64,000 nucleotides of DNA from Escherichia coli O157:H7. GTDB taxonomy: Bacteria > Pseudomonadota > Gammaproteobacteria > Enterobacterales > Enterobacteriaceae. The position numbers and the translations under genes are program-made. The notes under the pieces were generated by a model. The model saw nothing but the letters and a program-made list of their open reading frames with translations. It ran no database searches and was not told where the DNA came from. The stretch lies in NCBI RefSeq assembly GCF_013167455.1, contig NZ_CP038328.1; one strand, written 5' to 3'. Positions 4,177 through 56,133 of this stretch are shown here, one piece after another. Every line of letters begins with the position of its first letter. Positions within the stretch are counted from its first letter, which is position 1.

Positions 4177-5615
4177 TTATTTCAGCCCCAGAGCGGCTTT
4201 CATGGTGTAGAAGAGATCGGTCTGGTCGGTCAGTCCAACGACATTGGCGGCATGCGGGCCATACGCCGCAATACGCAACTGACTGCCGGTATGTTCTTGT
4301 GAATCCTCTTCGGAGTTCCCGTAACTCATCACCATCACTGCGCCATCTTTGGTATTTAGCGCCTGAGTGAGGCCCGGAGCTTTGGTATCCGGCGCAACAA
4401 TCTGGCTGGCGTGGGCGTGATCAGCGGTGACTATGACCAGCGTGTTACCATCCTTTTTGGCGAATTCCAGCGCCCGTTGTACGGCTTCATCGAGATCGAC
4501 CGTCTCGCCAATTTGCCCACAAGGATTCGCAGCATGATCCTGTTTATCGATTGACGCACCTTCAACTTGCAGGAAAAAGCCTTTCTCATTTTTACTCAAC
4601 AATTCAATGGCTTTGTCGGTCATCTGTGCCAGGGTCGGTACACTGTCATTACGTTGCGGATTAGGCGTACAGGTGACTGCGGGCTTATCGATATTACCGT
4701 GGTACGTTGCTTTCGGTCCTAGCCAGCGCACTGGCATATTGCCGTCAGCAAACAGGCCAAGCAGGGGTTTTTGCTGATTCGCTTCCGTCACCGAATTCAG
4801 TGAGGCAGCATCGCTCACCAACTGATAACCACGCGCCTGTGCCTGTTCACGCAGCGTTTTTCCCTGCCATTCACCAGCGGTTGCCGTTTCAGCAAAGGTT
4901 TTTGCGCCGCCGCCAAGCGTAACGTCGGCACGAGCGTTAAGCAGCTGTTCGGTAATCGATCCTTTTCCGCCTTTTTCCAGAGCGTTACCCGGACATTTTT
5001 CACTGGTCGCGCTCGGACCGTAGCATTTGCGCGAGGTCACATGCGCCACCAGCGCGGCGGGCGTGGCATCCTGCAACTCTGCGGTAGAAACGTTACCGGT
5101 CGCCAGACCTGCGGCTTTTGCCATTTCCAGAATCGTTGGGTGATCTTTTTCGTGAATATCGACGCCCAGCGCGCCGTTATAGGTTTTGACACCGGTTGAC
5201 CAGGCGGTTGCTGATGCAGCCGAGTCGGTGACGTAGTCCGGTTTTCCGGTTTTTTTATTCAGCGCATAGTGAGTGTATTGCCCGGTAAGCGGTAAGGCAT
5301 CGATACCTTTAAAAAAGCCGCCCGCACCTTCGGCATAATTACGTGCGGCAGTAATTTCCGAATCCCCCATCCCATCGCCAATCAGCAAAATAATATTTTT
5401 TGCAGGTTTATCGCTAAGAGAATCACGCAGAGCGGCGGTCTGATCAGCCGTTAAGCGGCGGTCTGATCAGCCGTTAAGCGGCGAGCACCGCCGGGTGCAG
5501 TAATATCGCCCTGAGCAGCCCGGTTTTCCAGAACAGGCATTTCTGGTGTCCGGGCTTTTGTCACAGGGGTAAACAGTAACGGTAAGAGTGCCAGTGCAAT
5601 AGTGCTTTGTTTCAC
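4177..5615 (-). pseudogene. phoA: Alkaline phosphatase phoA, reading frame broken by a 23-bp direct tandem duplication in the region encoding the first residues of the mature protein
   Basis: N-terminal fragment (ORF 5451..5684: ...[54 protein letters not shown]) and C-terminal fragment (4177..5388) lie in different frames. The span from the GTG start to the stop is 1439 nt, which is 1416 + 23. Confidence 0.85.
5432..5477. repeat. Perfect direct tandem duplication of a 23-bp unit (plus strand GCGGCGGTCTGATCAGCCGTTAA x2) inside phoA
   Basis: Both copies read directly and adjacent; the second copy brings a TAA in frame. Confidence 0.9.
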
Positions 5616-17492: not shown

Positions 17493-18344
17493 TTACCCCG
17501 CCCGATAAAACGGTTTATCCCCAAGAATCGTCGCCCGATGCATAATCCGCCGCTGTGGCAGGTAATCGGCATTGGCATAGTGCTGAGTCACACGGTTATC
17601 CCAAATCGCAATATCATTCGGTTGCCAGCGCCAGCGCACCTGAAACTCCGGTTTAGTGATATGGGCGAATAAAAAGCCTAACAAGGCTTCGCTCTCTTTC
17701 TCGCTGACATCAACAATTCGCGTAGTAAAGCCTTCATTCACAAACAGCGCCTGTTTACCGCTCACCGGATGCGTTCGCACCACCGGATGTAGCAACGGCG
17801 GATTTTTCGCAACCGCCTCGCGCCAGCGTTGATGTTCCTCTTCGGTTTTGCGGTATTTGTATTCCGGGAACGATTTACGAAAATCATGCTCCGCACGCAG
17901 CCCGCTCAGCAGCTGGCGGAAGGGAACAGAGAGCGCCTCATAGGCCGCAATACCGCTGGTCCAGAGCGTATCGCCGCCGGTCGAAGGTAACTCTTTCGCT
18001 GCCAGAATCGCCCCTGCGGGTGGCGTTTCAATAAATGTCACATCGGTATGCCAGTTGTCGTTATCTGGCGGATTATCGTTATGGGTATCCAGCACGATGA
18101 TCTCGTCAACCCCTTCGGCATGAGGGTAAACAGGGTGAATATGCAGTTCGCCAAAACGCTGGGCCAGCGCGCGTTGCTGCTGCGGCGTAATGGCTTGATC
18201 GCGCAGAAACACCACCTGATGGCGCAGTACCGCATGGTAAAGTTGTTCAAACTGATTATCGCTTAACGGGCGCGTCAGGTCGGCACCCGAAATTTGTGCT
18301 CCGATATACGGCCCCAGCGGGGTAATGCTCAGACGTTCACTCAT
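17493..18344 (-). CDS. tauD: Taurine dioxygenase (alpha-ketoglutarate-dependent)
   Basis: 283 aa; recognised TauD sequence. Confidence 0.95.
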
Positions 18345-19168
18345 TGTACTTCTCCATGCCAGGGCGTCAGGCGGCGCTGTAACGCGCGCAGACCCAGTTC
18401 TAAAAGAAAGGCGATAATCGCAATCACCGCGATCCCCGCCAGCACCACGTCAGTCGCGAGAAATTCACCCGCTGACTGAACCATAAATCCTAAACCGCGC
18501 GTCGCGGCAATCAGCTCCGCCGCCACCAGCGTAGACCAGCCCACACCCAGACCAATACGTAATCCGGTGAGGATTTCCGGCAGCGCGCCGGGCAAAATGA
18601 CAAACCACAGCACCTGCGCACGGCTGGCACCCAGCGACTGGGCAGCACGAATGCGAACCTGCTGCGCGCTTTTCACCCCCGCCAGCGCCGACATCGCCAC
18701 CGGTGCAAAAATCGCTAAATAGATCAGTAAGATCTTCGAGGTTTCACCAATACCAAACCAGATCACCATCAGCGGCAAATAAGCCAGCGGCGGCACCGGA
18801 CGATAAAGCTCGATTATCGGATCCAGAATGCCGCGCACCGTCGGGCTTAGCCCCATGGCGATCCCGACCGGAATGCCGATCAACACCGCCGCGAGTAGCG
18901 CCAGCACAATGCGCGTCAGGCTGGCTGCCAGATGCTGCCACAGCGTGGCGTCCATAAATCCCTGCGGTCCGGCAATGGTGAGCAGTTTTGCCAGTACTTG
19001 TTGCGGCGGCGGCAAAAACAGCGGGCTAATCAGTTGCAGCGCCGCCACCGTCCACCATACAGTGAGTAAAACCGCTAACGTGCCAATGCTTAAGGTCACC
19101 TGACGCGAGAGCGGCCAGCGCCATTTCAGCCGCCGCGAATGCAGTTTTTCATTAATGAGCACACTCAT
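18341..19168 (-). CDS. tauC: Taurine ABC transporter permease
   Basis: 275 aa; 4-nt overlaps with tauB and tauD. Confidence 0.95.
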
Positions 19169-21209: not shown

Positions 21210-21839
21210 ATGATTCGGGTAGTGCTGGTGGATGACCATGTTGTGGTGCGCTCTGGCTTCGCACAATTACTCTCTCTGGAAGACGATCTGGAGGTCATTG
21301 GTCAGTACAGTAGTGCCGCGCAGGCATGGTCGGCATTAATCCGTGATGACGTCAATGTTGCCGTCATTGATATTGCCATGCCGGACGAAAACGGCCTCAG
21401 TTTGCTTAAGCGCCTGCGTGCACAAAAACCGCAATTTCGCGCCATTATTCTTAGCATTTATGACGCGCCAACCTTTGTGCAAAGCGCGCTGGATGCCGGT
21501 GCCAGCGGGTATTTAACCAAACGCTGTGGGCCGGAAGAGTTAGTACAGGCGGTGCGCTCGGTCGGGCTGGGCGGGCATTATCTCTGTGCCGATGCGATTC
21601 GGGCTTTACGCGGCGGCGGGCAACCCGCCCAGGCGCTGGAAATTCTCACCCCACGAGAACGTGAAGTGTTTGAGTTACTGGTCAAAGGAGACAGCGTTAA
21701 AGAGATCGCCTTTAAACTCGAACTCAGTCATAAAACGGTACATGTGCATCGCGCCAATGTGCTGGGAAAACTGAACTGCCATAGCACCATTGAACTGGTA
21801 CATTTTGCGCTCGACCACCATCTGCTGGCGGGGCATTAA
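21210..21839 (+). CDS. UhpA-like NarL/LuxR-family response regulator (209 aa)
   Basis: MIRVVLVDDHVVVRSGFAQLL... receiver domain plus C-terminal LuxR HTH; strongly resembles UhpA along its length. Confidence 0.85.
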   Translation: MIRVVLVDDHVVVRSGFAQLLSLEDDLEVIGQYSSAAQAWSALIRDDVNVAVIDIAMPDENGLSLLKRLRAQKPQFRAIILSIYDAPTFVQSALDAGASGYLTKRCGPEELVQAVRSVGLGGHYLCADAIRALRGGGQPAQALEILTPREREVFELLVKGDSVKEIAFKLELSHKTVHVHRANVLGKLNCHSTIELVHFALDHHLLAGH

Positions 21840-23380
21840 TGTCGCGCAATCTTCGTCATTGGGTGATTTTGCTGTTTATTGTGCTAGCCTGGGGAACCGG
21901 CTGGCTGATGCTGTGGACGCTCAGCTTTTATCTGACCAATAACGGTCAACAGGCGGTGTTGTTTCTCCCGCAGGGAGTTTATCTCGCCCTTGTTATTTTG
22001 CTCTCTCGCCGCTACTGGCCTGCGTTGGTGCTCCCCCCTTTGCTGATGATGTTCTGGCTCCATAGTGAACAGCTATTGAACGGTTATCTCATGCTGGCAA
22101 CGCCGGTTATTAGCCTGTTTCCTGCCCTCCTTGCGCAAAACTTCTGGCACCGTTTTCCACTTTACTGGCAGCGTCTGACGTTGCTGTTAGCCACTGTCAC
22201 GGCAGCTTCATTGTTGAATACCGCCCTGCTCTCCCCTTTTATGTCAGGCCCAATAATGCTACCGGGTTTGACCTCATTTACCGGCGGCGTATTACTGACG
22301 CCGTTTGTCTATCTTATCTTTGAGTTTCTGCGCCAGCAGCATCGCTACCAGCTCCTGGGACTCGATACGCATAATCCCCCCTTGCGTACCTCTTTAATCA
22401 TCTGGTGTAGCCTGTTTTTTATTATTGGTATCGGCACTCAGATGGTGCTGTCACCTGAAATTGAACGTCTGCTGTTGATCGTGGTCTTTTTGCCCAATGT
22501 GGTGATGGCGTGGAAATTTGGCTGGCAAGGTGGCGTACTCTCCGGGCTTTTGGGCAGCATGATGATCACCATCGCCCGCCAGATTGGCGTGGGCTTTAGT
22601 AACCTGGTGGAGCTGGAGATTTTCCTCGCGACCCAGGCCTTGCTGGGAATTGGCCTGGGCATTGCCATCAGTCGCCAGCAACATCTGGCGCTAAACCTGC
22701 ACCATTACCGACAACGGCTGGAGGCCGAGCTGGCAGCGCGGCGGGCATTGGCGGAAAAGCTGATCCACACCGAGGAGGACACGCGAAAAAACCTGGCGCG
22801 AGAGCTGCACGACGAAATCGGTCAGAACATCACCGCCATTCAGATCCAGTCGCAACTGGTGAAGCGGGCGCGTGATCCGGCGCAAATTCAATCCGCAGCC
22901 AGCCAAATCAATGAGCTCGCCCGCCGCATTCATCTCTCCACCCGCCAATTGCTGCGCCAGTTGCGGCCTCCCGCGCTTGATGAACTGACATTTCGCGAAG
23001 CGTTGCTGCATCTGATTAATGAATTTGCCTTTAGTGAACGCGGCATTCATTGCCAGTTTGCCTATCAACTGAACTCCACACCAGAAAACGAAACGGTGCG
23101 CTTTACCTTGTATCGGTTATTGCAGGAGTTGCTCAATAACATCTGTAAACACGCCGAAGCCAGCGAAGTGACGATTATCCTGCGCCAGCAGGGAGAGGTA
23201 TTGCATCTGGAAGTCAGCGACAACGGTGTGGGGATCGCCAGCGGGAAAATGGCTGGATTTGGCATTCAGGGGATGCGTGAGCGCGTCAGCGCCCTGGGCG
23301 GCGACTTAACGCTCGAAAAACAGCACGGCACGCGGGTAATTGTTAACTTGCCCACATTTTTGCAACAAATCGCCGGATAA
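21839..23380 (+). CDS. UhpB-like sensor histidine kinase (membrane N-terminal domain plus HisKA_3/HATPase), 513 aa
   Basis: Hydrophobic N-terminal half, H-box LARELHDEIGQ, C-terminal ATPase; resembles UhpB. Start overlaps the regulator stop. Confidence 0.85.
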   Translation: MSRNLRHWVILLFIVLAWGTGWLMLWTLSFYLTNNGQQAVLFLPQGVYLALVILLSRRYWPALVLPPLLMMFWLHSEQLLNGYLMLATPVISLFPALLAQNFWHRFPLYWQRLTLLLATVTAASLLNTALLSPFMSGPIMLPGLTSFTGGVLLTPFVYLIFEFLRQQHRYQLLGLDTHNPPLRTSLIIWCSLFFIIGIGTQMVLSPEIERLLLIVVFLPNVVMAWKFGWQGGVLSGLLGSMMITIARQIGVGFSNLVELEIFLATQALLGIGLGIAISRQQHLALNLHHYRQRLEAELAARRALAEKLIHTEEDTRKNLARELHDEIGQNITAIQIQSQLVKRARDPAQIQSAASQINELARRIHLSTRQLLRQLRPPALDELTFREALLHLINEFAFSERGIHCQFAYQLNSTPENETVRFTLYRLLQELLNNICKHAEASEVTIILRQQGEVLHLEVSDNGVGIASGKMAGFGIQGMRERVSALGGDLTLEKQHGTRVIVNLPTFLQQIAG

Positions 23381-23422
23381 CCAGGAAAAAGTCTTAGGTA
23401 TCCCGGATTTTCTCTCATCCCC

Positions 23423-23445
23423 TTTCACTTTCATTTTCATATAGT
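23423..23445 (+). promoter_or_regulatory. Candidate activator-dependent promoter: three direct TTTCA(C/T) repeats, then -10 TATAGT with a poor -35
   Basis: Read directly in the 72-bp gap between the kinase and the UhpC-like gene; a GGAG RBS follows 6 nt before the 23465 ATG. Confidence 0.35.
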
Positions 23446-23464
23446 CAGCAACATGGAGACAACC

Positions 23465-24769
23465 ATGCACGCGCGTTCAGCGAGAGAAATTAATCAATGC
23501 TACCGGACATTACGTCCGCGATTGCTGATGTGCATGATTATTGGCTACGCCGCATTTTATCTGACGCGAAAAAGCGTGAATTACGTCCTTCCGGCGCTAC
23601 AAACCGACCTCGGACTGGATAAAGGCGACATTGGCCTGCTGGGTTCGCTGTTTTATCTCAGCTACGGATTGTCGAAATTTACCGCCGGACTGTGGCATGA
23701 CAGCCACGGACAACGCGGTTTTATGGGCGTCGGCTTGTTCGCCACCGGGTTATTGAACGTGGTGTTTGCCTTTGGCGAATCACTTACGCTTCTGCTTGTG
23801 GTCTGGACACTGAACGGTTTTTTTCAGGGCTGGGGATGGCCACCGTGTGCCCGCTTGCTGACCCACTGGTACTCACGCAATGAGCGCGGTTTCTGGTGGG
23901 GCTGCTGGAATATGTCGATCAACATTGGCGGAGCGATTATTCCGCTGATTAGCGCCTTTGCCGCCCACTGGTGGGGCTGGCAGGCCGCGATGCTGACACC
24001 GGGGATAATCAGCATGGCATTAGGGATCTGGTTAACGCTACAACTCAAAGGCACGCCCCAGGAAGAGGGATTACCGACAGTTGGTCACTGGCGTCACGAT
24101 CCGCTGGAGTTACGTCAGGAACAACAAAGTCCGCCGATGGGGCTGTGGCAAATGTTGCGCACCACCATGCTGCAAAATCCGCTGATCTGGCTACTGGGCG
24201 TCTCATATGTACTGGTTTATGTGATCCGGATTGCGCTTAACGACTGGGGCAATATCTGGCTGACGGAAAGCCACGGTGTCAACCTGCTCAGCGCCAACGC
24301 CACGGTAATGCTGTTTGAAGTGGGCGGCTTACTCGGCGCGTTATTTGCCGGATGGGGATCGGATTTGCTGTTTAGCGGGCAACGAGCGCCAATGATTTTG
24401 CTGTTCACGTTGGGGTTGATGGTGTCAGTCGCCGCACTGTGGCTGGCACCGGTTCATCACTACGCTCTGCTGGCAGTGTGCTTTTTTACCGTGGGCTTTT
24501 TCGTCTTTGGCCCACAAATGCTGATTGGACTTGCGGCGGTGGAGTGTGGGCACAAAGCTGCGGCGGGTTCAATCACCGGATTTCTCGGCCTGTTCGCTTA
24601 CCTTGGCGCGGCGCTGGCAGGCTGGCCGCTGTCGCTGGTCATCGAACGCTACGGCTGGCCGGGAATGTTCAGTTTACTCTCGGTCGCCGCAGTACTTATG
24701 GGTTTACTGCTGATGCCGTTACTGATGGCGGGCATCACCACCACTCACGCTCGAAGGATAAAACAATGA
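23465..24769 (+). CDS. UhpC-like MFS membrane sensor (organophosphate:Pi antiporter family), about 434 aa
   Basis: 12-TM MFS protein with strong resemblance to UhpC (FYLTRKS..., GPQMLIG...). Start at 23465 preferred over 23453 because of the RBS. Confidence 0.85.
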   Translation: MHARSAREINQCYRTLRPRLLMCMIIGYAAFYLTRKSVNYVLPALQTDLGLDKGDIGLLGSLFYLSYGLSKFTAGLWHDSHGQRGFMGVGLFATGLLNVVFAFGESLTLLLVVWTLNGFFQGWGWPPCARLLTHWYSRNERGFWWGCWNMSINIGGAIIPLISAFAAHWWGWQAAMLTPGIISMALGIWLTLQLKGTPQEEGLPTVGHWRHDPLELRQEQQSPPMGLWQMLRTTMLQNPLIWLLGVSYVLVYVIRIALNDWGNIWLTESHGVNLLSANATVMLFEVGGLLGALFAGWGSDLLFSGQRAPMILLFTLGLMVSVAALWLAPVHHYALLAVCFFTVGFFVFGPQMLIGLAAVECGHKAAAGSITGFLGLFAYLGAALAGWPLSLVIERYGWPGMFSLLSVAAVLMGLLLMPLLMAGITTTHARRIKQ

Positions 24770-25797
24770 AAATGACCTTTACCTCTACTCTGATTGCTTC
24801 TGCCGTTGCGCTGGCGACTTTAACGGGTGCCGCGCAGGCAAAAGGCCGGCTGGTGGTCTATTGCAGCGCCACCAATGAAATGTGTGAGGCCGAAACCAAA
24901 GCGTTTGGCGAGAAATATGATGTAAAAACCTCGTTTATCCGCAACGGTTCCGGAAGCACCCTGGCAAAAGTCGATGCTGAAAAGAAAAACCCCCAGGCTG
25001 ACGTCTGGTACGGCGGCACTTTAGACCCGCAATCGCAGGCTGGCGAGATGGGCCTGCTACAGGCGTATAAATCCCCTAACCTTGAGCAGATCATGGAGAA
25101 ATTCCGCGATCCGGCAAAAGTGAAAGGGAATCTGTCCTCTGCCGTTTATGTGGGGATCCTCGGTTTTGGCGTAAACACCGATCGTCTGAAAGAGAAAAAC
25201 CTGCCGGTGCCGAAGTGCTGGAAAGATCTCACCAAACCGGAATATAAAGGCGAAATTCAAATTGCCGATCCGCAAAGTTCCGGTACTGCCTACACCGCCC
25301 TGGCTACTTTTGCGCAGCTGTGGGGGGAAGATCAGGCCTTTGATTATCTAAAACAACTGAACGCCAACGTCTCTCAGTACACCAAATCAGGCATAGCCCC
25401 GGCACGTAACGCCGCCCGTGGCGAAACGGCGATTGGTATTGGCTTCCTGCATGACTACTCGCTGGAAAAAGAACAGGGCGCGCCGCTGGAGTTGATTTCC
25501 CCGTGTGAAGGTACGGGCTACGAAATTGGCGGCGTCAGCATTCTGAAAGGCGCGCGCAACCTCGACAACGCCAAACTGTTTGTGGACTGGGTATTATCAA
25601 AAGAAGCTCAGGAACTGGCGTGGAAGAAAGGGAAGTCTTATCAGATCCTGACTAATACCACCGCCGAAACGTCGCCAAATTCGCTGAAGCTCGACGACCT
25701 GAAATTAATCAACTACGACATGGATAAATATGGTTCCACGGATGTTCGTAAGGCATTGATTAATAAATGGGTCAGCGAAGTGAAGATGGGTAAATAA
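24766..25797 (+). CDS. AfuA/FbpA-family periplasmic substrate-binding protein (343 aa)
   Basis: Signal peptide MKMTFTSTLIASAVALATLTGAAQA then SBP fold; ATG overlaps the UhpC-like stop (ATGA). The long listed ORF 24439.. is an upstream extension. Confidence 0.8.
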   Translation: MKMTFTSTLIASAVALATLTGAAQAKGRLVVYCSATNEMCEAETKAFGEKYDVKTSFIRNGSGSTLAKVDAEKKNPQADVWYGGTLDPQSQAGEMGLLQAYKSPNLEQIMEKFRDPAKVKGNLSSAVYVGILGFGVNTDRLKEKNLPVPKCWKDLTKPEYKGEIQIADPQSSGTAYTALATFAQLWGEDQAFDYLKQLNANVSQYTKSGIAPARNAARGETAIGIGFLHDYSLEKEQGAPLELISPCEGTGYEIGGVSILKGARNLDNAKLFVDWVLSKEAQELAWKKGKSYQILTNTTAETSPNSLKLDDLKLINYDMDKYGSTDVRKALINKWVSEVKMGK

Positions 25798-25865
25798 ACC
25801 CGCATTAGGCGCATTTGCCGGGTGCAGCGCAGACGCCTGCCCCGGCCAACCATACCGGAACTGCT

Positions 25866-27944
25866 ATGTCACAGACACTTGCACTCCATCCCGTGAAAAA
25901 GCGGGATGCGATTTTCCTTTGGGTTTTGCTGGGCTGGCTGGCATTTGTCCTGTTGCCGAGCTGGAGCCTCGATTATGGCCTGCTGGAATCCACGAGTGAT
26001 GAGATCCTCGGGGCGTACGGCTGGTCGCATTTTAATATCAGCTGGCTGTGGTATTTACTCCCGAGCCTGTTGCTGGTCCGCCCGTTTCGTCAGGCCACGC
26101 GCGAACAGCGTAGTCGTCATTATTTCGATGCCGGCTGGGCATTGCTCTGTATGGCGTTTATCGTCATCAGCGCCACCGTGGCTGGACGCGGTTTAGGCTA
26201 CGCCGCCATCGTGCTGTTTGTCGAACTAGGCGCGATTATGACGCTGGCCTTAACCCGCCTCGAATGGCTGGGCGGCGACCGCTTCGTGATCGGCTCACTG
26301 ATTGCGATTGTGGCGCTGATTGGCATTTTTATCGTCTGGCCGAGCATCGCCATTTTTATCCCGATGTTCACCAACGACGCGGGAGAGCTCGCCCCGCTGG
26401 CGTTTATGACCGTGCTCTCGCAGGCACATATTGTTCAGGTGATCGTCAACTCTATCGTCTTGTCGATAGCGGTGGGGATAGGCTGTGCTTTCTTCGGCCT
26501 GGTGCTGGCGATTTATACCACGCGCATCGCTAAACGCAGCGCCATTATTGGTCGCATCTTTTCCATTTTGCCCATCGTTACGCCACCGTTTGTGGTCGGC
26601 TTAGGCGTGACGCTCATGATGGGGCGTTCCGGCTATGTTACGGAATTTATGGTGGAGTGGTTTGGGCTGACCAACACCAACTGGCTGTACGGTTTTACCG
26701 GGATCTGGCTGGCACAGGTTCTGGCATTCACGCCAATGGCATTTATGATCCTCGACGGGGCCATTAAAACCATTCATCCCTCGCTGGAAGAGGCCTCCTA
26801 CACCCTGCGCGCCAGCCGCTGGCAAACCTTTAACGGCGTGTTTGTGCCGTTGTTGAAGCCCGCGCTCGCCAATGCCTTTTTAATCGTCGTGGTACAGTCA
26901 CTGGCTGATTTCAGTAACCCGCTGGTACTTGGCGGTAACTTCGACGTACTGGCGACGCAAATTTACTTCTATATTACCGGCTCGCAGCTGGATTATCAGG
27001 CCGCCAGCACCCTTGGCGCTTTCCTGCTGCTGTTCTCGCTGCTGGTGTTCTGCATACAGTATATGTGGATTGGTAAACGCTCTTACGTCACGGTTTCCGG
27101 CAAATCCTACCGTGGCGACGTCCAGCCGCTTCCGGTCACCCTGGTGTGGAGCGTGGTCGCCATACTTGCGATATGGATTGCCTTTAACGCCCTGCTCTAC
27201 GGCAGCATTTTCTACGGCAGCTTCACGGTGAACTGGGGCGTGGACTACACCCTGACGCTGGATAACTTTATCAAGCTATTTGGTCAGGGAATGAGCGACG
27301 GCGCGTGGCCTTCACTGCTGGATACCCTGCTCTACGCCGGGATTGCCGCTCCCATTACCGCTATCTTTGGCCTGCTCATCGCCTGGGTGGTGGTGCGTCA
27401 ACAATTCAAAGGCAAAAAGACCATCGAGTTCACCACCATGCTGTGCTTTGCCGTACCGGGTACGGTGGCGGGCGTTTCGTATATTCTTGCCTTTAACAGC
27501 GCTCCGGTTTATCTCACCGGAACGGCGGCAATTGTGATTATCTCGATGGTGATGCGTAACGTTCCGGTGGGTATTCGCGCCGGGATTGCAGGCCTGGGGC
27601 AGATCGACAAATCGCTGGATGAAGCCTCACTCAGCCTGCGCGCGGGTTCCTTGCGAACCATAACCCACATTTTACTGCCGCTGCTGCGTCCGGCCATTCT
27701 CTCGGCCCTGATCTACAGCTTTGTGCGGGCCATCACGACGGTCAGCGCCATCGTCTTTCTCGTCACGCCGGACACCCGCGTGGCAACCGCCTACATTCTT
27801 AACCGCGTTGAAGACGGCGAATATGGCGTAGCCATCGCCTATGGTTCGATTCTGATCGTGGTGATGCTGGCGATTATTTTCCTCTTTGACTGGCTGATCG
27901 GAGAAGCACGTATCTCCCGTTCTAAAGCCAAAAACCAGGCGTAA
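25866..27944 (+). CDS. AfuB-type ABC permease with two fused transmembrane domains (about 692 aa)
   Basis: Large polytopic protein typical of FbpB/AfuB-type permeases; ATG at 25866 preferred over the TTG-initiated listed ORF. Confidence 0.8.
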
Positions 27945-27955
27945 TGGAGCGCACT

Positions 27956-29002
27956 ATGAGTCAGAAAAATTTTGTGGAACTGCGCAACGTCACTAAACGA
28001 TTCGGCAGTAATACGGTTATCGACAATATCAATCTCACCATCCCACAAGGGCAAATGGTGACGCTGCTTGGCCCTTCCGGCTGCGGCAAAACCACCATTT
28101 TGCGTCTGGTTGCCGGGCTGGAAAAACCGAGTGAAGGGCAAATCTTTATTGATGGCGAAGATGTCACGCATCGTTCCATTCAGCAGCGCGATATCTGCAT
28201 GGTGTTTCAGTCATACGCTCTGTTCCCGCATATGTCGCTGGGCGAAAACGTCGGCTACGGGTTAAAGATGCTCGGCGTGTCGCGTAGCGAAGTAAAGCAG
28301 CGGGTGAAAGAGGCGCTGGCAATGGTGGATCTGGAAGGGTTCGAGGACCGCTATGTCGACCAGATTTCCGGTGGTCAGCAACAGCGCGTGGCGCTGGCCC
28401 GCGCGTTGATCCTCAAACCAAAGGTGCTGCTGTTTGATGAGCCGTTAAGTAACCTCGATGCCAACCTGCGCCGCAGCATGCGCGATAAGATCCGCGAGCT
28501 GCAAAAGCAGTTTAATATCACGTCGCTCTACGTGACTCACGATCAAAGTGAGGCCTTCGCGGTTTCCGACACTGTGCTGGTGATGAATAAAGGTCACATC
28601 ATGCAGATTGGCTCACCGCAGGATCTCTATCGTCAGCCAGCCTCCCGCTTTATGGCAAGTTTTATGGGCGACGCCAACCTGTTCCCGGCGAACTTTAGCG
28701 AAGAGTATGTCGATATCTACGGTTATCGCCTGCCGCGCGCGGCGCATTTCCCGGTGCAAGGTAGCGGCACCGTCGGCGTTCGCCCGGAAGCCATCACCTT
28801 AAGCAATCACGGCGAAGAGAGTCAGCGTTGTGTTATTCGCCATGTCGCCTACATGGGGCCGCAGTACGAAGTGACCGTAGAGTGGCATGGACAGGAGATT
28901 TTATTACAAGTAAACGCCACCCGTTTACAGCCCGATATTGGTGAGCACTATTACCTCGAAATCCATCCTTACGGGATGTTTGTTTTAGCGGATGCGGCAT
29001 AA
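27956..29002 (+). CDS. AfuC-type ABC ATP-binding protein (about 348 aa; alternative start 27944)
   Basis: Walker [10 protein letters not shown], signature [15 protein letters not shown], Walker B LLFDEP; GGAG RBS upstream of 27956. Confidence 0.85.

Positions 29003-34669: not shown

Positions 34670-34673
<4 letters not shown>
33660..34673 (-). CDS. mhpE: 4-hydroxy-2-oxovalerate aldolase
   Basis: 337 aa, recognised MhpE sequence. Confidence 0.95.
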
Positions 34674-36435
<1,762 letters not shown>

Positions 36436-41068: not shown

Positions 41069-41845
41069 ATGAAAATTACGCAAATTCGTAATGCCACCCA
41101 AATTATCCAATACGCTGGCAAAACATTTCTTATCGACCCGTTACTCGCGCCTAAAGGAAGTTATCCGGGTTTTGCCGGAACGGCACGCGCAGAAATCCGC
41201 AATCCAACGGTAGAATTACCGTGCGATTTAACAACGTTACTCAACGTTGACGCCCTAATCGTGACCCATTTGCATGAAGATCACTGGGACGAAACAGCCT
41301 CCCGCGTCGTCCCTAAAGATAAACTGATTTATGTGCAAAATGAGCAAGATGCTGAATCACTGAATAAACAAGGATTTACGCATCTTACCGTACTTACCGA
41401 CGAGACTAAATTTGGCGATATTACTCTGCATAAAACGACAGGGCAGCACGGCTCCGATCGCACCTATGCCGACCCGGCGATGGCGAAGCGTTTAGGCGCA
41501 GCTTGCGGCGTTGTTTTCCAGCACCCGACAGAGAAAACGCTCTATCTGGCTGGCGATACCCTCTGGCGTGACGACGTCGAGGCTACAATGCTAACTTTCC
41601 AACCAGAAGTGGTTGTGTTGAATGCCGGATTTGCGCATGTTCTGGGGCATGGCGCGATAATTATGGGAGCAGAAGATATTCTCAAAACACATTTTACCCT
41701 CCCAGAAGCGCAAATTATCGCGACACATATGGAGGCCGTAAACCACTGTTTGCTGACGCGTGATGCGCTCAAGGAATACGCCAGAGATAATCAAATTATC
41801 GAATTTGTGAACGTACCAGAAGATGGTGAAACGTTGACATTCTAA
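41069..41845 (+). CDS. Metallo-beta-lactamase-fold hydrolase (about 258 aa), function unknown
   Basis: HxHxDH zinc motif THLHEDHWDE; GGAG RBS 6 nt upstream of the ATG. Confidence 0.75.
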   Translation: MKITQIRNATQIIQYAGKTFLIDPLLAPKGSYPGFAGTARAEIRNPTVELPCDLTTLLNVDALIVTHLHEDHWDETASRVVPKDKLIYVQNEQDAESLNKQGFTHLTVLTDETKFGDITLHKTTGQHGSDRTYADPAMAKRLGAACGVVFQHPTEKTLYLAGDTLWRDDVEATMLTFQPEVVVLNAGFAHVLGHGAIIMGAEDILKTHFTLPEAQIIATHMEAVNHCLLTRDALKEYARDNQIIEFVNVPEDGETLTF

Positions 41846-41864
41846 TTCGGAGATAAAGAGTGTT

Positions 41865-42818
41865 ATGCGCCCGCTAACTGTTGCCATTATCGCCGTTGCC
41901 GGTTTTAGTCCTTTTCACCTTTCCGTACCGTTTATCGTGTTTAGTGAAAAGATGGCGGAGAAAAAACGCTTTCACGTGATTATTTGCGCTGAAAAGCCGG
42001 GAAACGTGGACTCTGCCGATGGGTTTTCCGTAACCGCCACCCATGACTATACCGCAGTCATCCAGGCAGATATTGTGATAATTCCTTACTGGGGAACCAT
42101 TACACAAAAACCGCCACAAAAACTGCTGGAAGCCTTAACGACCGCACGGGATAACGGCGCACAGATTGTCGGGCTTTGCCTGGGCACGTTTGTGCTCGGC
42201 TATGCAGGTTTACTGAAAAATAAGCGTGCCGCCACGCACTGGGAGTTCGAGCGTGAATTTCAGGCACGTTTTCCACAAACACATCTGGATATTAACGCGT
42301 TGTACGTAGACGATGACGGCATTATTACCTCTGCCGGTACTGCCGCGGCGCTGGATTGCTGTTTGTATATTGTTCGGCAACATTTTGGCAGCGACTATGC
42401 TAACCATATTGCCCGACGGATGGTCGTACCGCCATATCGCACCGGCGGTCAGGCGCAGTTTATTGAGCAACCGGTGCCGAAAAATACCCATGATGAACGC
42501 ATAAACCTCCTGCTGGATTACCTGCGGCAAAACATTGCGCAACAGCATGATCTCGACTCGCTGGCGCAGCGAGTAATGATGAGTCGCCGCACATTAACTC
42601 GCCATTTTATGAAAGCGACCGGTTCGAGTATCGCCGAATGGCTCATTACTGAACGCTTACGCCGTAGCCAGGAACTGTTGGGATCCAGTCAGTTGCCCGT
42701 TGAGCGGATAGCGGCTGAGGTGGGTTTTCTCTCACCTGTGACCTGGCGTCAGCATTTTAAATCTCACTTCGGCGTCAGCCCCGCCGAATGGCGCAAAACC
42801 TTTCGCGGTATGGCATGA
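41865..42818 (+). CDS. GlxA-type AraC-family transcriptional regulator (DJ-1/PfpI-like N-terminal domain plus AraC HTH), 317 aa
   Basis: N-terminal class-I glutamine-amidotransferase-like domain with conserved Cys (GLCLGTF) and C-terminal AraC HTH. Confidence 0.8.
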   Translation: MRPLTVAIIAVAGFSPFHLSVPFIVFSEKMAEKKRFHVIICAEKPGNVDSADGFSVTATHDYTAVIQADIVIIPYWGTITQKPPQKLLEALTTARDNGAQIVGLCLGTFVLGYAGLLKNKRAATHWEFEREFQARFPQTHLDINALYVDDDGIITSAGTAAALDCCLYIVRQHFGSDYANHIARRMVVPPYRTGGQAQFIEQPVPKNTHDERINLLLDYLRQNIAQQHDLDSLAQRVMMSRRTLTRHFMKATGSSIAEWLITERLRRSQELLGSSQLPVERIAAEVGFLSPVTWRQHFKSHFGVSPAEWRKTFRGMA

Positions 42819-52707: not shown

Positions 52708-53991
52708 TCACCGTTTGTAATCGATGGCTTCCGGCTGCTCCAGATATACGGTGGTTTGTGCCGGTTGTGTGCTGGCAATCACCTTGCCGCCACGTACCGA
52801 ATAACGTACCGGAACCTGACGGCGCAGCGCATCAAATCCATTTTCAGCCGGCAGGATAATCAGGTTGGCGCTGTTTCCGGCGGCAATGCTGTAATCCTGC
52901 AAATTCAACGTCCTGGCGCTGTGGTGGGTGATTAAATTCAGGCCATCGTTAATCTGCCCATAGCCCATCAGCTGGCAAACATGCAGCCCCATATGCAGCA
53001 CTTGCAGCATATTCGCCGTTCCCAGCGGATACCACGGATCGAAGACATCATCGTGACCAAAGCAGACGTTAATGCCGGACTCCAGCATCTCTTTAACGCG
53101 CGTGATGCCGCGACGTTTTGGATACGTATCGAATCGTCCTTGCAGATGAATATTGACCAGCGGGTTGGCGACAAAGTTAATACCGGACATTTTCAGCAAG
53201 CGGAACAGACGTGAGGTATACGCCCCGTTATAAGAGTGCATTGCCGTGGTGTGGCTGGCGGTGACTCGCGCGCCCATGCCTTCACGGTGCGCCAGGGCAG
53301 CAACGGTTTCGACAAAGCGCGACTGCTCGTCATCGATCTCATCACAGTGAACGTCGATGAGACGGTCGTATTTTTGCGCCAGGGCGAAGGTTTTATGCAG
53401 CGACTCCACGCCGTATTCACGGGTAAATTCAAAATGCGGAATCGCCCCCACTACATCTGCCCCTAAGCGTAACGCCTCTTCCAGCAACGCTTCACCGTTG
53501 GGATACGACAAAATCCCTTCCTGAGGGAAGGCGACGATTTGCAGATCAATCCACGGCGCGACTTCCAGCTTCACTTCCAGCATTGCTTTCAGCGCAGTTA
53601 GCGTTGCATCCGAAACATCGACATGGGTACGCACATGCTGAATGCCGTTGGCAATCTGCCATTTCAGCGTTTGCCATGCGCGTTGTTTCACATCGTCATG
53701 GGTTAATAACGCTTTGCGCTCGGCCCAGCGTTCAATGCCTTCAAACAGCGTGCCGGACTGATTCCAGTTCGGTTGTCCGGCGGTTTGCGTGGTGTCCAGG
53801 TGAATATGTGGCTCCACAAACGGCGGTATAACTAAACCTTGTTCGGCATCCAGGCTGTTTTCAGTTATGGGCATCACGCCGGATTGCGCATCAATGGCGC
53901 TGATTTTTCCGTCCTGCAGATGAATCTGCCACAGCCCCTCTTTGCCTGGCAACCGGGCGTTAATAATTGTTTGTAAAGCGTTATTCGACAC
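52708..53991 (-). CDS. codA: Cytosine deaminase, GTG start (427 aa)
   Basis: Amidohydrolase with HIHLD metal-binding motif; overlaps the codB 3' end by 11 nt. Confidence 0.9.
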
Positions 53992-55240
53992 TGTTAGCCT
54001 CCACATGCGTCATTGCTGCTGTCGTTTTACGATTCAAAATCGGGTTAAGGATCAGATAGCTCAGCGCGCCACCTAATACCGCGTTGACCGGAACAATTCC
54101 CGGTAACCAGTGGCCTGCAGCAATCCCCAGGGCGACCGCCAGAATCGCCACCCAATTGACACTCATCATACGCGTGGTCGCAAAGTGCTCATAGCGGCGA
54201 CGGTTCATCAGATAGTCGGCAATGATCACGCCACCCACTGGAGGAATAGCTGCCGAAAGGAAGGTCAACCAGCCGACAAAATTGTTATACAGCCATAATG
54301 CACAGACCGTACCGATAATACCGTTGATTACCGAAAGGGTTTTGCTCGACATCCCGGTAATGTTGGCGAAACCTAAACCCGACGCATAGAGCGCGTTATC
54401 GTTGGTGGTCCAGATATTTAGCCCCAGCACCACAATCGCAGGCAACAGCAGGCCCTGAGCAATCATCACATCAGAGATATCCGCCATCCCCAGTGCCGCA
54501 GCGCCCGCTGCACCGAAAATAAACATCAACGAGTTGCCGAGGAAAAAGGCCACCATCGCCACCAGCACCGCCAGTTTGGCATTGCGACCAAAGCGGACAA
54601 AGTCAGCGGTGAGCGTGCCCGCACTGATAAATGACCCCACAACCAGCGCCAGCGCGACATTGAAATCTAACGGTTGTGCGGGAACGACCGCTTTTAAGGC
54701 GTCCAGGCCGCCCATGCCGTTAACGGCCAGCCACACGGAATAACCGCCAAGACAGGCGATAGCCGGAACCGCAATCAACGAAAGAACCGTCAGCGCCGAA
54801 ATGCCAAAGAAGACGGTGACGGTCATCAGTAAACCGGAAACGGCAATCAGCAAATTAATATCCAGCCCGGTTGCCTTGCCCACCGGAATAGCAAACATCG
54901 CCACACCGACGCCAAACCAGCCAACCTGGGTGCCGCCCAGCAGCAGTGAAGGCAGCCATGAGCCTTTAACACCAAACGAGAAGCGAGCAAGAAGATGAGT
55001 GGTCAGGCCGGTTTTTGCGCCAATGTAACCGAGAAATGAAGTGTAAATACCGAGGAGAAGATTACCGATGAGAACTGCGAGGAAGAAATCATGATAGCTA
55101 AGACCGGTTCCGAGAGTGCCGCCGGTCCACATACTGGCGGAAAAGAAGGTTAATCCCAGCATGACGAACGTCAATGCCAATACCCCTTTCCGCGCCGACT
55201 GCGGGACCGGCCCCTGGCTAAAGTTGTTATCTTGCGACAC
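53981..55240 (-). CDS. codB: Cytosine permease (NCS1 family)
   Basis: 419 aa polytopic membrane protein. Confidence 0.9.
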
Positions 55241-55384: not shown

Positions 55385-56128
55385 AACAGTGGGTAGGCAT
55401 GATAAGACGCGTCAGCGTCGCATCAGGCAACTACGCACGGTGTCGGATGCGGCGCGAGCGCCTTATCCGACCTACGGTTCAGGCCTGTAGGCATGATAAG
55501 ACGCGCCTGCGTCGTATCAGGCATCTGCGCACGGTGTCGGATGCGGCGCGAGCGCCTTATCCGACCTACGGTTCAGGCCTGTAGGCATGATAAGACGCAT
55601 CAGCGTCGCATCAGGCACTGAGCACGGTGTCGGATGCGGTGCGAGCGCCTTATCCGACCTACGGTTCAGGCCTGTAGGCATGATAAGACGCATCAGCGTC
55701 GCATCAGGCATCTGCGCATGGTGTCGGATGCGGCGCGAGCGCCTTATCCGACCTACGGTTCAGGCCTGTAGGCATGATAAGACGCGCCTGCGTCGCATCA
55801 GGCATCGGCGCATGGTGTCGAATGCGGCGCGAGCGCCTTATCCGACCTACGGTTCAGGCCTGTAGGCATGATAAGACGCATCAGCGTCGCATCAGGCATC
55901 GGCGCATGGTGTCGAATGCGGTGCGAGCGCCTTATCCGACCTACGGTTCAGGCCTGTAGGCATGATAAGACGCATCAGCGTCGCATCAGGCATCTGCGCA
56001 TGGTGTCGGATGCGGCGCGAGCGCCTTATCCGACCTACGGTTCAGGCCTGTAGGCATGATAAGACGCGCCAGCGTCGCATCAGGCATCTGCGCACAACTG
56101 TCGGATGCGCCACGCGACGCATCCGACA
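55385..56128. repeat. Tandem array (about 8 copies) of a roughly 94-bp composite REP/BIME-type unit between the codB promoter and the prpE 3' end
   Basis: The motif TAGGCATGATAAGACGC recurs at about 55394, 55488, 55582, 55675, 55769, 55863, 55957 and 56051, each followed by GTCGGATGCGGCGCGAGCGCCTTATCCGACCTACGGTTCAGGCCTG. Confidence 0.9.
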
Positions 56129-56133
56129 ATACC

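Follow-up and report, generated by a model that had tools for sequence, protein, structure and literature searches.

Overlapping gene junctions and a predicted uhpT-like promoter upstream of Z0461-afuABC in a 64,000-nucleotide stretch of the Escherichia coli O157:H7 chromosome

In the chromosome of E. coli O157:H7, the gene for cytosine deaminase begins before the gene for cytosine permease has ended, and overlapping junctions recur in neighboring gene clusters. Do such overlaps indicate that the genes are expressed together and that their translation is coupled? We addressed this question in a stretch of 64,000 nucleotides (here called the window) that extends from yaiI to yahO and carries phoA, ehaB, hemB, tauABCD, the O-island OI-20 (fusR, fusK, Z0461, and afuABC), frmRAB, mhpT, mhpABCDFE, mhpR, lacIZYA, cynTSX, codBA, and prpBCDE. 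The RefSeq/PGAP annotation of these genes was carried over from two of the many O157:H7 chromosomes that are 100% identical to the window. The features discussed below are listed in Table 1.

TABLE 1 Positions of junctions, start sites, and predicted promoter elements in the window
Feature	Positions	Strand	Basis or remark
codB, cytosine permease, 419 aa, GTG start	53981-55240	minus	PGAP of identical genomes
codA, cytosine deaminase, 427 aa, GTG start	52708-53991	minus	PGAP, solved chains, homolog lengths
codB/codA 11-nt overlap	53981-53991	minus	codB stop TAA 53983-53981, codA GTG 53991-53989
codA SD GGAGG, 6 nt 5' of GTG	53998-54002	minus	within codB codons Val-Glu-Ala
tauB/tauC ATGA overlap, 4 nt	19165-19168	minus	SD GGGAGG upstream, -10.3 kcal/mol
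tauC/tauD ATGA overlap, 4 nt	18341-18344	minus	SD GGAGAAG upstream, -6.4 kcal/mol
mhpD/mhpF ATGA overlap, 4 nt	35617-35620	minus	mhpF SD -5.7 kcal/mol
mhpF/mhpE ATGA overlap, 4 nt	34670-34673	minus	mhpE SD -7.6 kcal/mol
fusR/fusK TAATG junction, 1-nt overlap at 21839	21837-21841	plus	fusK SD -5.5 kcal/mol
Z0461 (UhpC-like)/afuA ATGA overlap, 4 nt	24766-24769	plus	SD AAGGA upstream, -5.5 kcal/mol
Z0461 (UhpC-like) from probable true start, second ATG	23465-24769	plus	GGAG 6 nt upstream
afuB stop TAA 27942-27944, 11-nt spacer with GGAG, afuC ATG 27956-27958	27942-27958	plus	PGAP, SD, profile, relatives
Predicted uhpT-type promoter of Z0461-afuABC	23341-23445	plus	fusK-Z0461 gap
CRP-like site TGTTAACTTGCCCACA	23341-23356	plus	8/10 core positions
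UhpA-type box CCAGGAAAAAGTCTTAG, 17-bp imperfect palindrome	23381-23397	plus	directly 3' of fusK stop
-10-like hexamer TATAGT	23440-23445	plus	59 nt from box start

Start of codA inside codB

The first-pass annotation had placed the GTG start of codA 11 nt inside the 3' end of codB. These coordinates are exact, and the same junction is found in the RefSeq/PGAP annotations of identical O157 genomes: an NCS1 cytosine permease gene is followed on one strand by the deaminase gene, whose start lies inside the permease gene. The anti-SD duplex energy at the codA GTG was -9.3 kcal/mol, which falls in the top 0.6% of 6,918 coding-sequence windows. Solved CodA chains are 426 to 427 aa long and have the N terminus (M)SNNALQ, the CodA encoded here shares ~99% identity with the E. 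coli protein of known structure, and homologs from many Enterobacterales are likewise 426 to 427 aa in length. An in-frame ATG at 54006, which would add five codons and extend the overlap to 26 nt, was rejected as the start; it has no SD (+0.3 kcal/mol), and the longer form disagrees with the solved chains and the homologs, both of which match the GTG form. Since the GGAGG motif lies between this ATG and the GTG, it can serve the GTG only.

A rival reading, that some of the overlaps are artifacts of start codon choice and not real features, is highly improbable. Such an artifact does account for afuB/afuC, where the overlap requires a disfavored ATG at 27944, and Z0461 seems to be annotated with a start (23453) 12 nt upstream of the proper one (both are discussed below). 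However, the codA start is fixed by the solved chains, the homolog lengths, and the position of the SD, and at the starts of the tau and mhp genes and of afuA the SDs are well positioned and PGAP agrees, with the N terminus of AfuA being conserved across related loci.

A structure in the mRNA that sequesters the codA ribosome-binding site, with coupling through RNA unfolding, was considered for codB/codA only and rejected. The 120-nt junction RNA folded no better than shuffled sequences (-20.9 kcal/mol versus a shuffle mean of -22.7 kcal/mol; z = +0.55), i.e., it had no excess structure, and the codA SD sits in a loop of the predicted fold. A weak consensus scan detected promoter-like matches 5' of codB, at 55356-55328 and 55520-55493, and none inside codB.

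The overlap was present in all four loci examined in which codB precedes codA, namely, O157, L003 (14 nt), L004 from Edwardsiella tarda (11 nt), and L007 from Providencia (8 nt). These lengths differ by multiples of three, and the reading-phase relation is therefore identical. In the three loci other than O157, a GAG (Glu) codon in the poorly conserved CodB tail forms the codA SD at an equivalent position. Three further loci, from Serratia fonticola, Yersinia entomophaga, and Erwinia billingiae (L005, L006, and L008; codA at 2501), contain codA without codB, next to a divergent gene with nitrite/sulfite-reductase domains (nirB-like). The pairing of codB with codA is thus not universal in the Enterobacterales, and the presence of solo codA in three genera implies that codA can be translated independently, with no coupled upstream gene being needed.

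The genes of the O157 locus are those of K-12 codBA (Danielsen et al. 1992, as cited in PMC9379551), which has been called an operon "with overlapping genes" and is NAC regulated (PMC9379551). Nothing material differs between the two loci; O157 has a longer REP/BIME array in the codB-prpE gap. This gap is 893 nt long, and ~7 tandem REP/BIME-type units of ~98 nt each occupy 55420-56130. Because of these tandem units, the window gives multi-copy matches per genome.

Overlaps, operon status, and probable coupling

Among the 37 same-strand neighbor pairs in the window, 7 overlap (19%), and 5 of these are at a distance of exactly -4 (P of ~7e-7 under a model with distances uniform on -20 to +200). 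The excess at -4 is a well-known genome-wide mode, and the window is typical rather than special. In E. coli as well as 1,695 other prokaryotes, co-directional neighbors are most often, by a wide margin, spaced at -4 or -1 (PMC10666635), and most prokaryote groups have overlaps in approximately 15% of such pairs (PMC6728339). The 4-nt overlaps that had been reported for tauB/tauC, tauC/tauD, mhpD/mhpF, and mhpF/mhpE are all present and agree with PGAP, as does the 4-nt overlap between Z0461, which encodes a UhpC-like protein, and the binding-protein gene afuA. The 1-nt fusR/fusK overlap was absent from that earlier list. At the overlapping junctions, the SD of the downstream gene is embedded in the 3' end of the upstream gene and is stronger than the coding background, for which the mean energy is -2.4 kcal/mol.

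The operon assignments drawn from these junctions are supported. Published work already names codBA, tauABCD, and mhpABCDFE as operons (PMC9379551, PMC544888, PMC2617782), and consensus scans detected no promoter- or terminator-like sites at the junctions above the shuffled expectation. [quoted passage not shown] If promoters inside the upstream genes drove the downstream genes, the overlaps would be uninformative on co-expression, and one junction offers a candidate: a promoter-like match, CTGACG-16-TACAAT, at tauC/tauD (18370-18343, minus strand). It was rejected as a tauD promoter, since its -10 hexamer covers the start codon of tauD, so that a transcript would begin within this gene and could not express it; the single match is also within chance (1 versus 1.8 expected). 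The codB/codA, mhp, and Z0461/afuA junctions gave zero promoter-like matches in the consensus scans, and the sole conserved promoter architecture lies in a real intergenic gap, that between fusK and Z0461, and not in an overlap. We therefore regard internal promoters as a very unlikely explanation.

These junctions are probably ordinary intra-operon cistron junctions (codBA, tauABCD, mhpABCDFE, fusRK, and Z0461-afuABC), most likely coupled by termination-reinitiation. A ribosome that ends the upstream gene at an overlapping stop would stay on the mRNA, and SD pairing would help the retained ribosome to restart at an ATG or GTG a few nucleotides away. In the case of codA, the terminating ribosome would have to move back ~8 to 11 nt to a weak GTG with a strong SD. 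In addition, ribosomes probably initiate independently to some extent at the strong SDs. By analogy with characterized pairs, translation of the downstream genes considered here may depend on that of the upstream genes. Whether the scanning ribosome in reinitiation is a 30S or a 70S particle is still unsettled (PMC12548453).

Compared with the termination-reinitiation pairs described previously (Huber et al. 2019, PMC6728339; 2023, PMC10666635; PMC12548453), six of the seven overlaps in the window are canonical, with a distance of -4 or -1 and an SD in the upstream gene, whereas codB/codA has an 11-nt overlap; the experimental set consisted of pairs other than these. Spacings from -8 to +10 nt have been treated as predictive of coupling (PMC10666635), and coupling falls sharply by approximately +20 nt (PMC6728339, PMC10666635, PMC12548453). 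The five -4 junctions and fusR/fusK (-1) are within the predictive range, and codB/codA (-11) is just outside it.

An unlikely alternative to coupling by termination-reinitiation is that the overlaps are neutral by-products of compaction or stop codon drift, with each downstream gene initiating de novo at its own SD. The strong SDs and the unstructured codB/codA junction would also permit independent initiation, and a de novo start is not obviously blocked. The solo codA genes of three genera and the variable UhpC-like/AfuA spacing (see below) point the same way, longer overlaps have been proposed to come from loss of the upstream stop codon (PMC10666635), and bioBF provides a precedent of an uncoupled -4 pair, which shows that a -4 overlap need not couple (PMC6728339). 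However, four of five native E. coli -4 pairs that were examined experimentally, all of them other than the present ones, were tightly coupled (PMC6728339). Moreover, a terminating ribosome covers a start at -1 to -11, and initiation there is thus not fully independent; the codBA overlap is kept in phase in each of the four loci with codB before codA; and the weak GTG of codA fits a need for a delivered ribosome.

TauB and TauC, of an ABC transporter, and MhpF and MhpE, of an aldolase-dehydrogenase, are in each case subunits of one complex. Complex subunits are enriched among overlapping pairs, which has been explained by stoichiometry (PMC10666635). Since only TauB/TauC and MhpF/MhpE share a complex, this rationale applies to two of the seven pairs; for CodB/CodA, TauC/TauD, and Z0461/AfuA, there is no obvious case for it.

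Gene overlap is a textbook phenomenon and the operons are known, so the overlaps are an ordinary, already known feature of described operons. Their practical use is as an annotation check, which here bears out the codA GTG, removes the supposed overlap at afuB/afuC, and points to a probable mis-call of the Z0461 start.

The OI-20 cassette and its predicted promoter

The cassette fusRK-Z0461-afuABC (21210-29002) was found in 518 of 5,426 complete E. coli genomes. It encodes, in order, a response regulator, a MASE1 kinase, a UhpC-like protein, a binding protein, a permease, and an ATPase, and this six-gene order and orientation are kept in a Serratia-like contig, Edwardsiella piscicida, Buttiauxella, Photorhabdus, and Vibrio brasiliensis. 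These relatives thus retain the arrangement of the genes but not always the Z0461/afuA overlap itself: the distance is -4 in the closest relatives (L009 and L010) and +9, +17, and +77 in L011 to L013. This drift indicates that coupling at this junction is not strongly conserved. The fusR/fusK distances in the five related loci are -1, -1, 0, -4, and -4.

An overlap had also been claimed for the permease and ATPase genes, afuB and afuC, and this claim did not hold up. The overlap, of 1 nt, arises only with the ATG at 27944, whereas PGAP places the afuC start at 27956. Position 1 of the NCBIfam equivalog profile NF008513 falls on residue 5 of the longer protein; the SD energy is -2.5 kcal/mol for 27944 versus -5.6 kcal/mol for 27956, which has a GGAG 6 nt upstream; and an equivalent of the ATG at 27944 is missing in three of the five related loci. 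All five have a stop, a GGAG, and an ATG at this junction, with gaps of +11 to +18, and share the AfuC N terminus M-x-Q-x-x-F-V-E/V-L. The profile, the SD, and the relatives favor the start at 27956, and afuB and afuC are thus 11 nt apart, a spacing (+11) in the gene-specific gray zone for coupling (PMC10666635).

A GC-rich hairpin, GCCGGG...CCCGGC, that lacks a T-tract is located in the 68-nt afuA-afuB spacer (25798-25865). Its folding was not significant relative to shuffled sequences (z = -0.77). The hairpin could be a stabilizer of the upstream binding-protein message.

The start of Z0461 is probably mis-called in RefSeq. The annotated (PGAP) ATG at 23453 has no SD and is absent in L009 and L010, in which an equivalent of the ATG at 23465 is kept, and the homologs are 434 aa long, matching a start at 23465. 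On these sequence features, 23465 is probably the true start.

Co-expression of the UhpC-like sensor with the ABC importer, as proposed in the first-pass annotation, is supported. The 4-nt overlap and the gene order in five other genera argue for it, as do a conserved predicted uhpT-like promoter and published RNA-seq co-regulation in EDL933 (PMC6199705 supplement). In that data set, Z0461, afuA, afuB, and afuC, together with fusK and fusR, were up-regulated in bovine gut contents, and Z0461, afuABC, and fusKR resembled one another in mean count and fold change (PMC6199705 supplement).

The first three gene products of the cassette resemble UhpABC, a hexose-phosphate sensing system in which external glucose-6-phosphate acts as inducer by way of the response regulator. 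FusR, FusK, and Z0461 are 49%, 35%, and 53% identical to UhpA, UhpB, and E. coli UhpC, respectively. Z0461 passes NCBIfam NF008661 (UhpC family MFS receptor) with 587.7 bits (cutoff, 564). FusR and FusK score below the UhpA and UhpB equivalog cutoffs (194 versus 258 bits and 379 versus 408 bits, respectively); with UhpA and UhpB as their best matches but with scores under the cutoffs, they are paralogs and not equivalogs. The recognition helix of the FusR HTH is nearly identical to that of UhpA. The two systems differ in their transporters, which are the antiporter UhpT in uhpABC-uhpT and the ABC importer AfuABC in OI-20. They also differ in the place of the UhpC-like gene, which is co-transcribed with the kinase gene in uhp but in OI-20 is on the regulated side, overlapping afuA.

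The gap between fusK and Z0461 contains three elements in an arrangement like that of the uhpT promoter. The UhpA-type box and the 59-nt distance from box start to -10 start were found in all five related loci, matches that are circular for the box itself, since the box pattern was derived from the same sites. This circularity does not affect its uniqueness in the window, where the degenerate pattern occurs once (0.04 expected). In the uhp locus, it also occurs once, upstream of uhpT. The corresponding sequence in the E. coli uhpT upstream region, CTAAGAAATTTTCCAGG, matches the OI-20 box at 14 of 17 positions in the opposite orientation, and it lies 60 nt from TACAAT, compared with 59 nt to the -10 element at Z0461. 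In every locus, the center of the CRP-like site is 39.5 to 40.5 nt upstream of the box center (40.5 at Z0461 and 39.5 in uhpT), and the spacings of the elements are within 1 nt of those of uhpT in six loci.

The UhpA inverted repeat of uhpT reportedly lies near -64, according to papers from the Kadner laboratory. The features of a uhpT-type promoter are thus a CAP site near -103.5, an inverted repeat near -64, and a -10 element without a good -35 element, and the predicted Z0461 promoter matches these by spacing. The distance between the CRP-like site and the box at Z0461 fits a UhpA repeat at that reported position together with a CAP site at -103.5, where the CAP site of uhpT has been placed (PMC5352689). 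Transcription of Z0461 is predicted to start at approximately 23452, which would exclude the ATG at 23453 and favors that at 23465.

These sequence comparisons suggest a FusR-controlled Z0461-afuABC operon transcribed from a uhpT-like promoter. More specifically, we propose, tentatively, that Z0461 and afuABC form one operon whose uhpT-type promoter, situated between fusK and Z0461, is activated by the UhpA paralog FusR and by CRP. OI-20 would then be a module of the UhpABC kind for sensing sugar phosphates, connected to an ABC importer in place of UhpT. In published work, FusKR is described as a sensor of fucose and a repressor of z0461 (Pacheco 2012, as summarized in PMC6199705 and PMC11644481). 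A box centered near -63 is at a typical activator position, which is in tension with the repression of z0461 by FusKR as reported in those summaries (PMC6199705, PMC11644481). The afuABC genes are the same as those of the sugar-phosphate ABC importer described by Sit et al. 2015 (PMC4546632), who noted that afuABC adjoins sugar-sensing genes in enterohemorrhagic E. coli (EHEC) and C. rodentium. In the searchable text of that paper, the word "promoter" has zero occurrences and "operon" is used for afuABC only (PMC4546632).

Of these results, the promoter architecture 5' of Z0461 alone merits further work. If the proposed arrangement is correct, the sensor gene Z0461 would feed back positively on its own expression, UhpA could take part in cross-talk because the operators are nearly identical, the annotated start at 23453 would be wrong and that at 23465 right, and the published view of FusKR as a dedicated fucose sensor repressing z0461 would have to be qualified. 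Were Z0461-afuABC dependent on FusR and CRP, the FusKR "fucose-sensing" system and the AfuABC importer, both of which have published roles in gut colonization, would be one regulatory unit, a point that could matter for the biology of EHEC. The signal sensed by this unit would then merit a retest with the UhpC-like protein present.

Additional observations in the window

Between mhpR and lacI, positions 41069-42818 carry genes for an MBL-fold metallo-hydrolase and a GlxA-family regulator, a stretch that is presumably absent from K-12. In phoA, a 23-bp tandem duplication at 5431-5476 (AGCGGCGGTCTGATCAGCCGTTA, two copies) was detected relative to O157 strain 644-PT8. It causes a frameshift and leaves an open reading frame of only 403 aa, compared with the 471-aa alkaline phosphatase. 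The duplication is absent from all eight matches listed (from ~5,400 complete E. coli genomes), and either an inactivating mutation particular to this strain or a sequence error could account for it.
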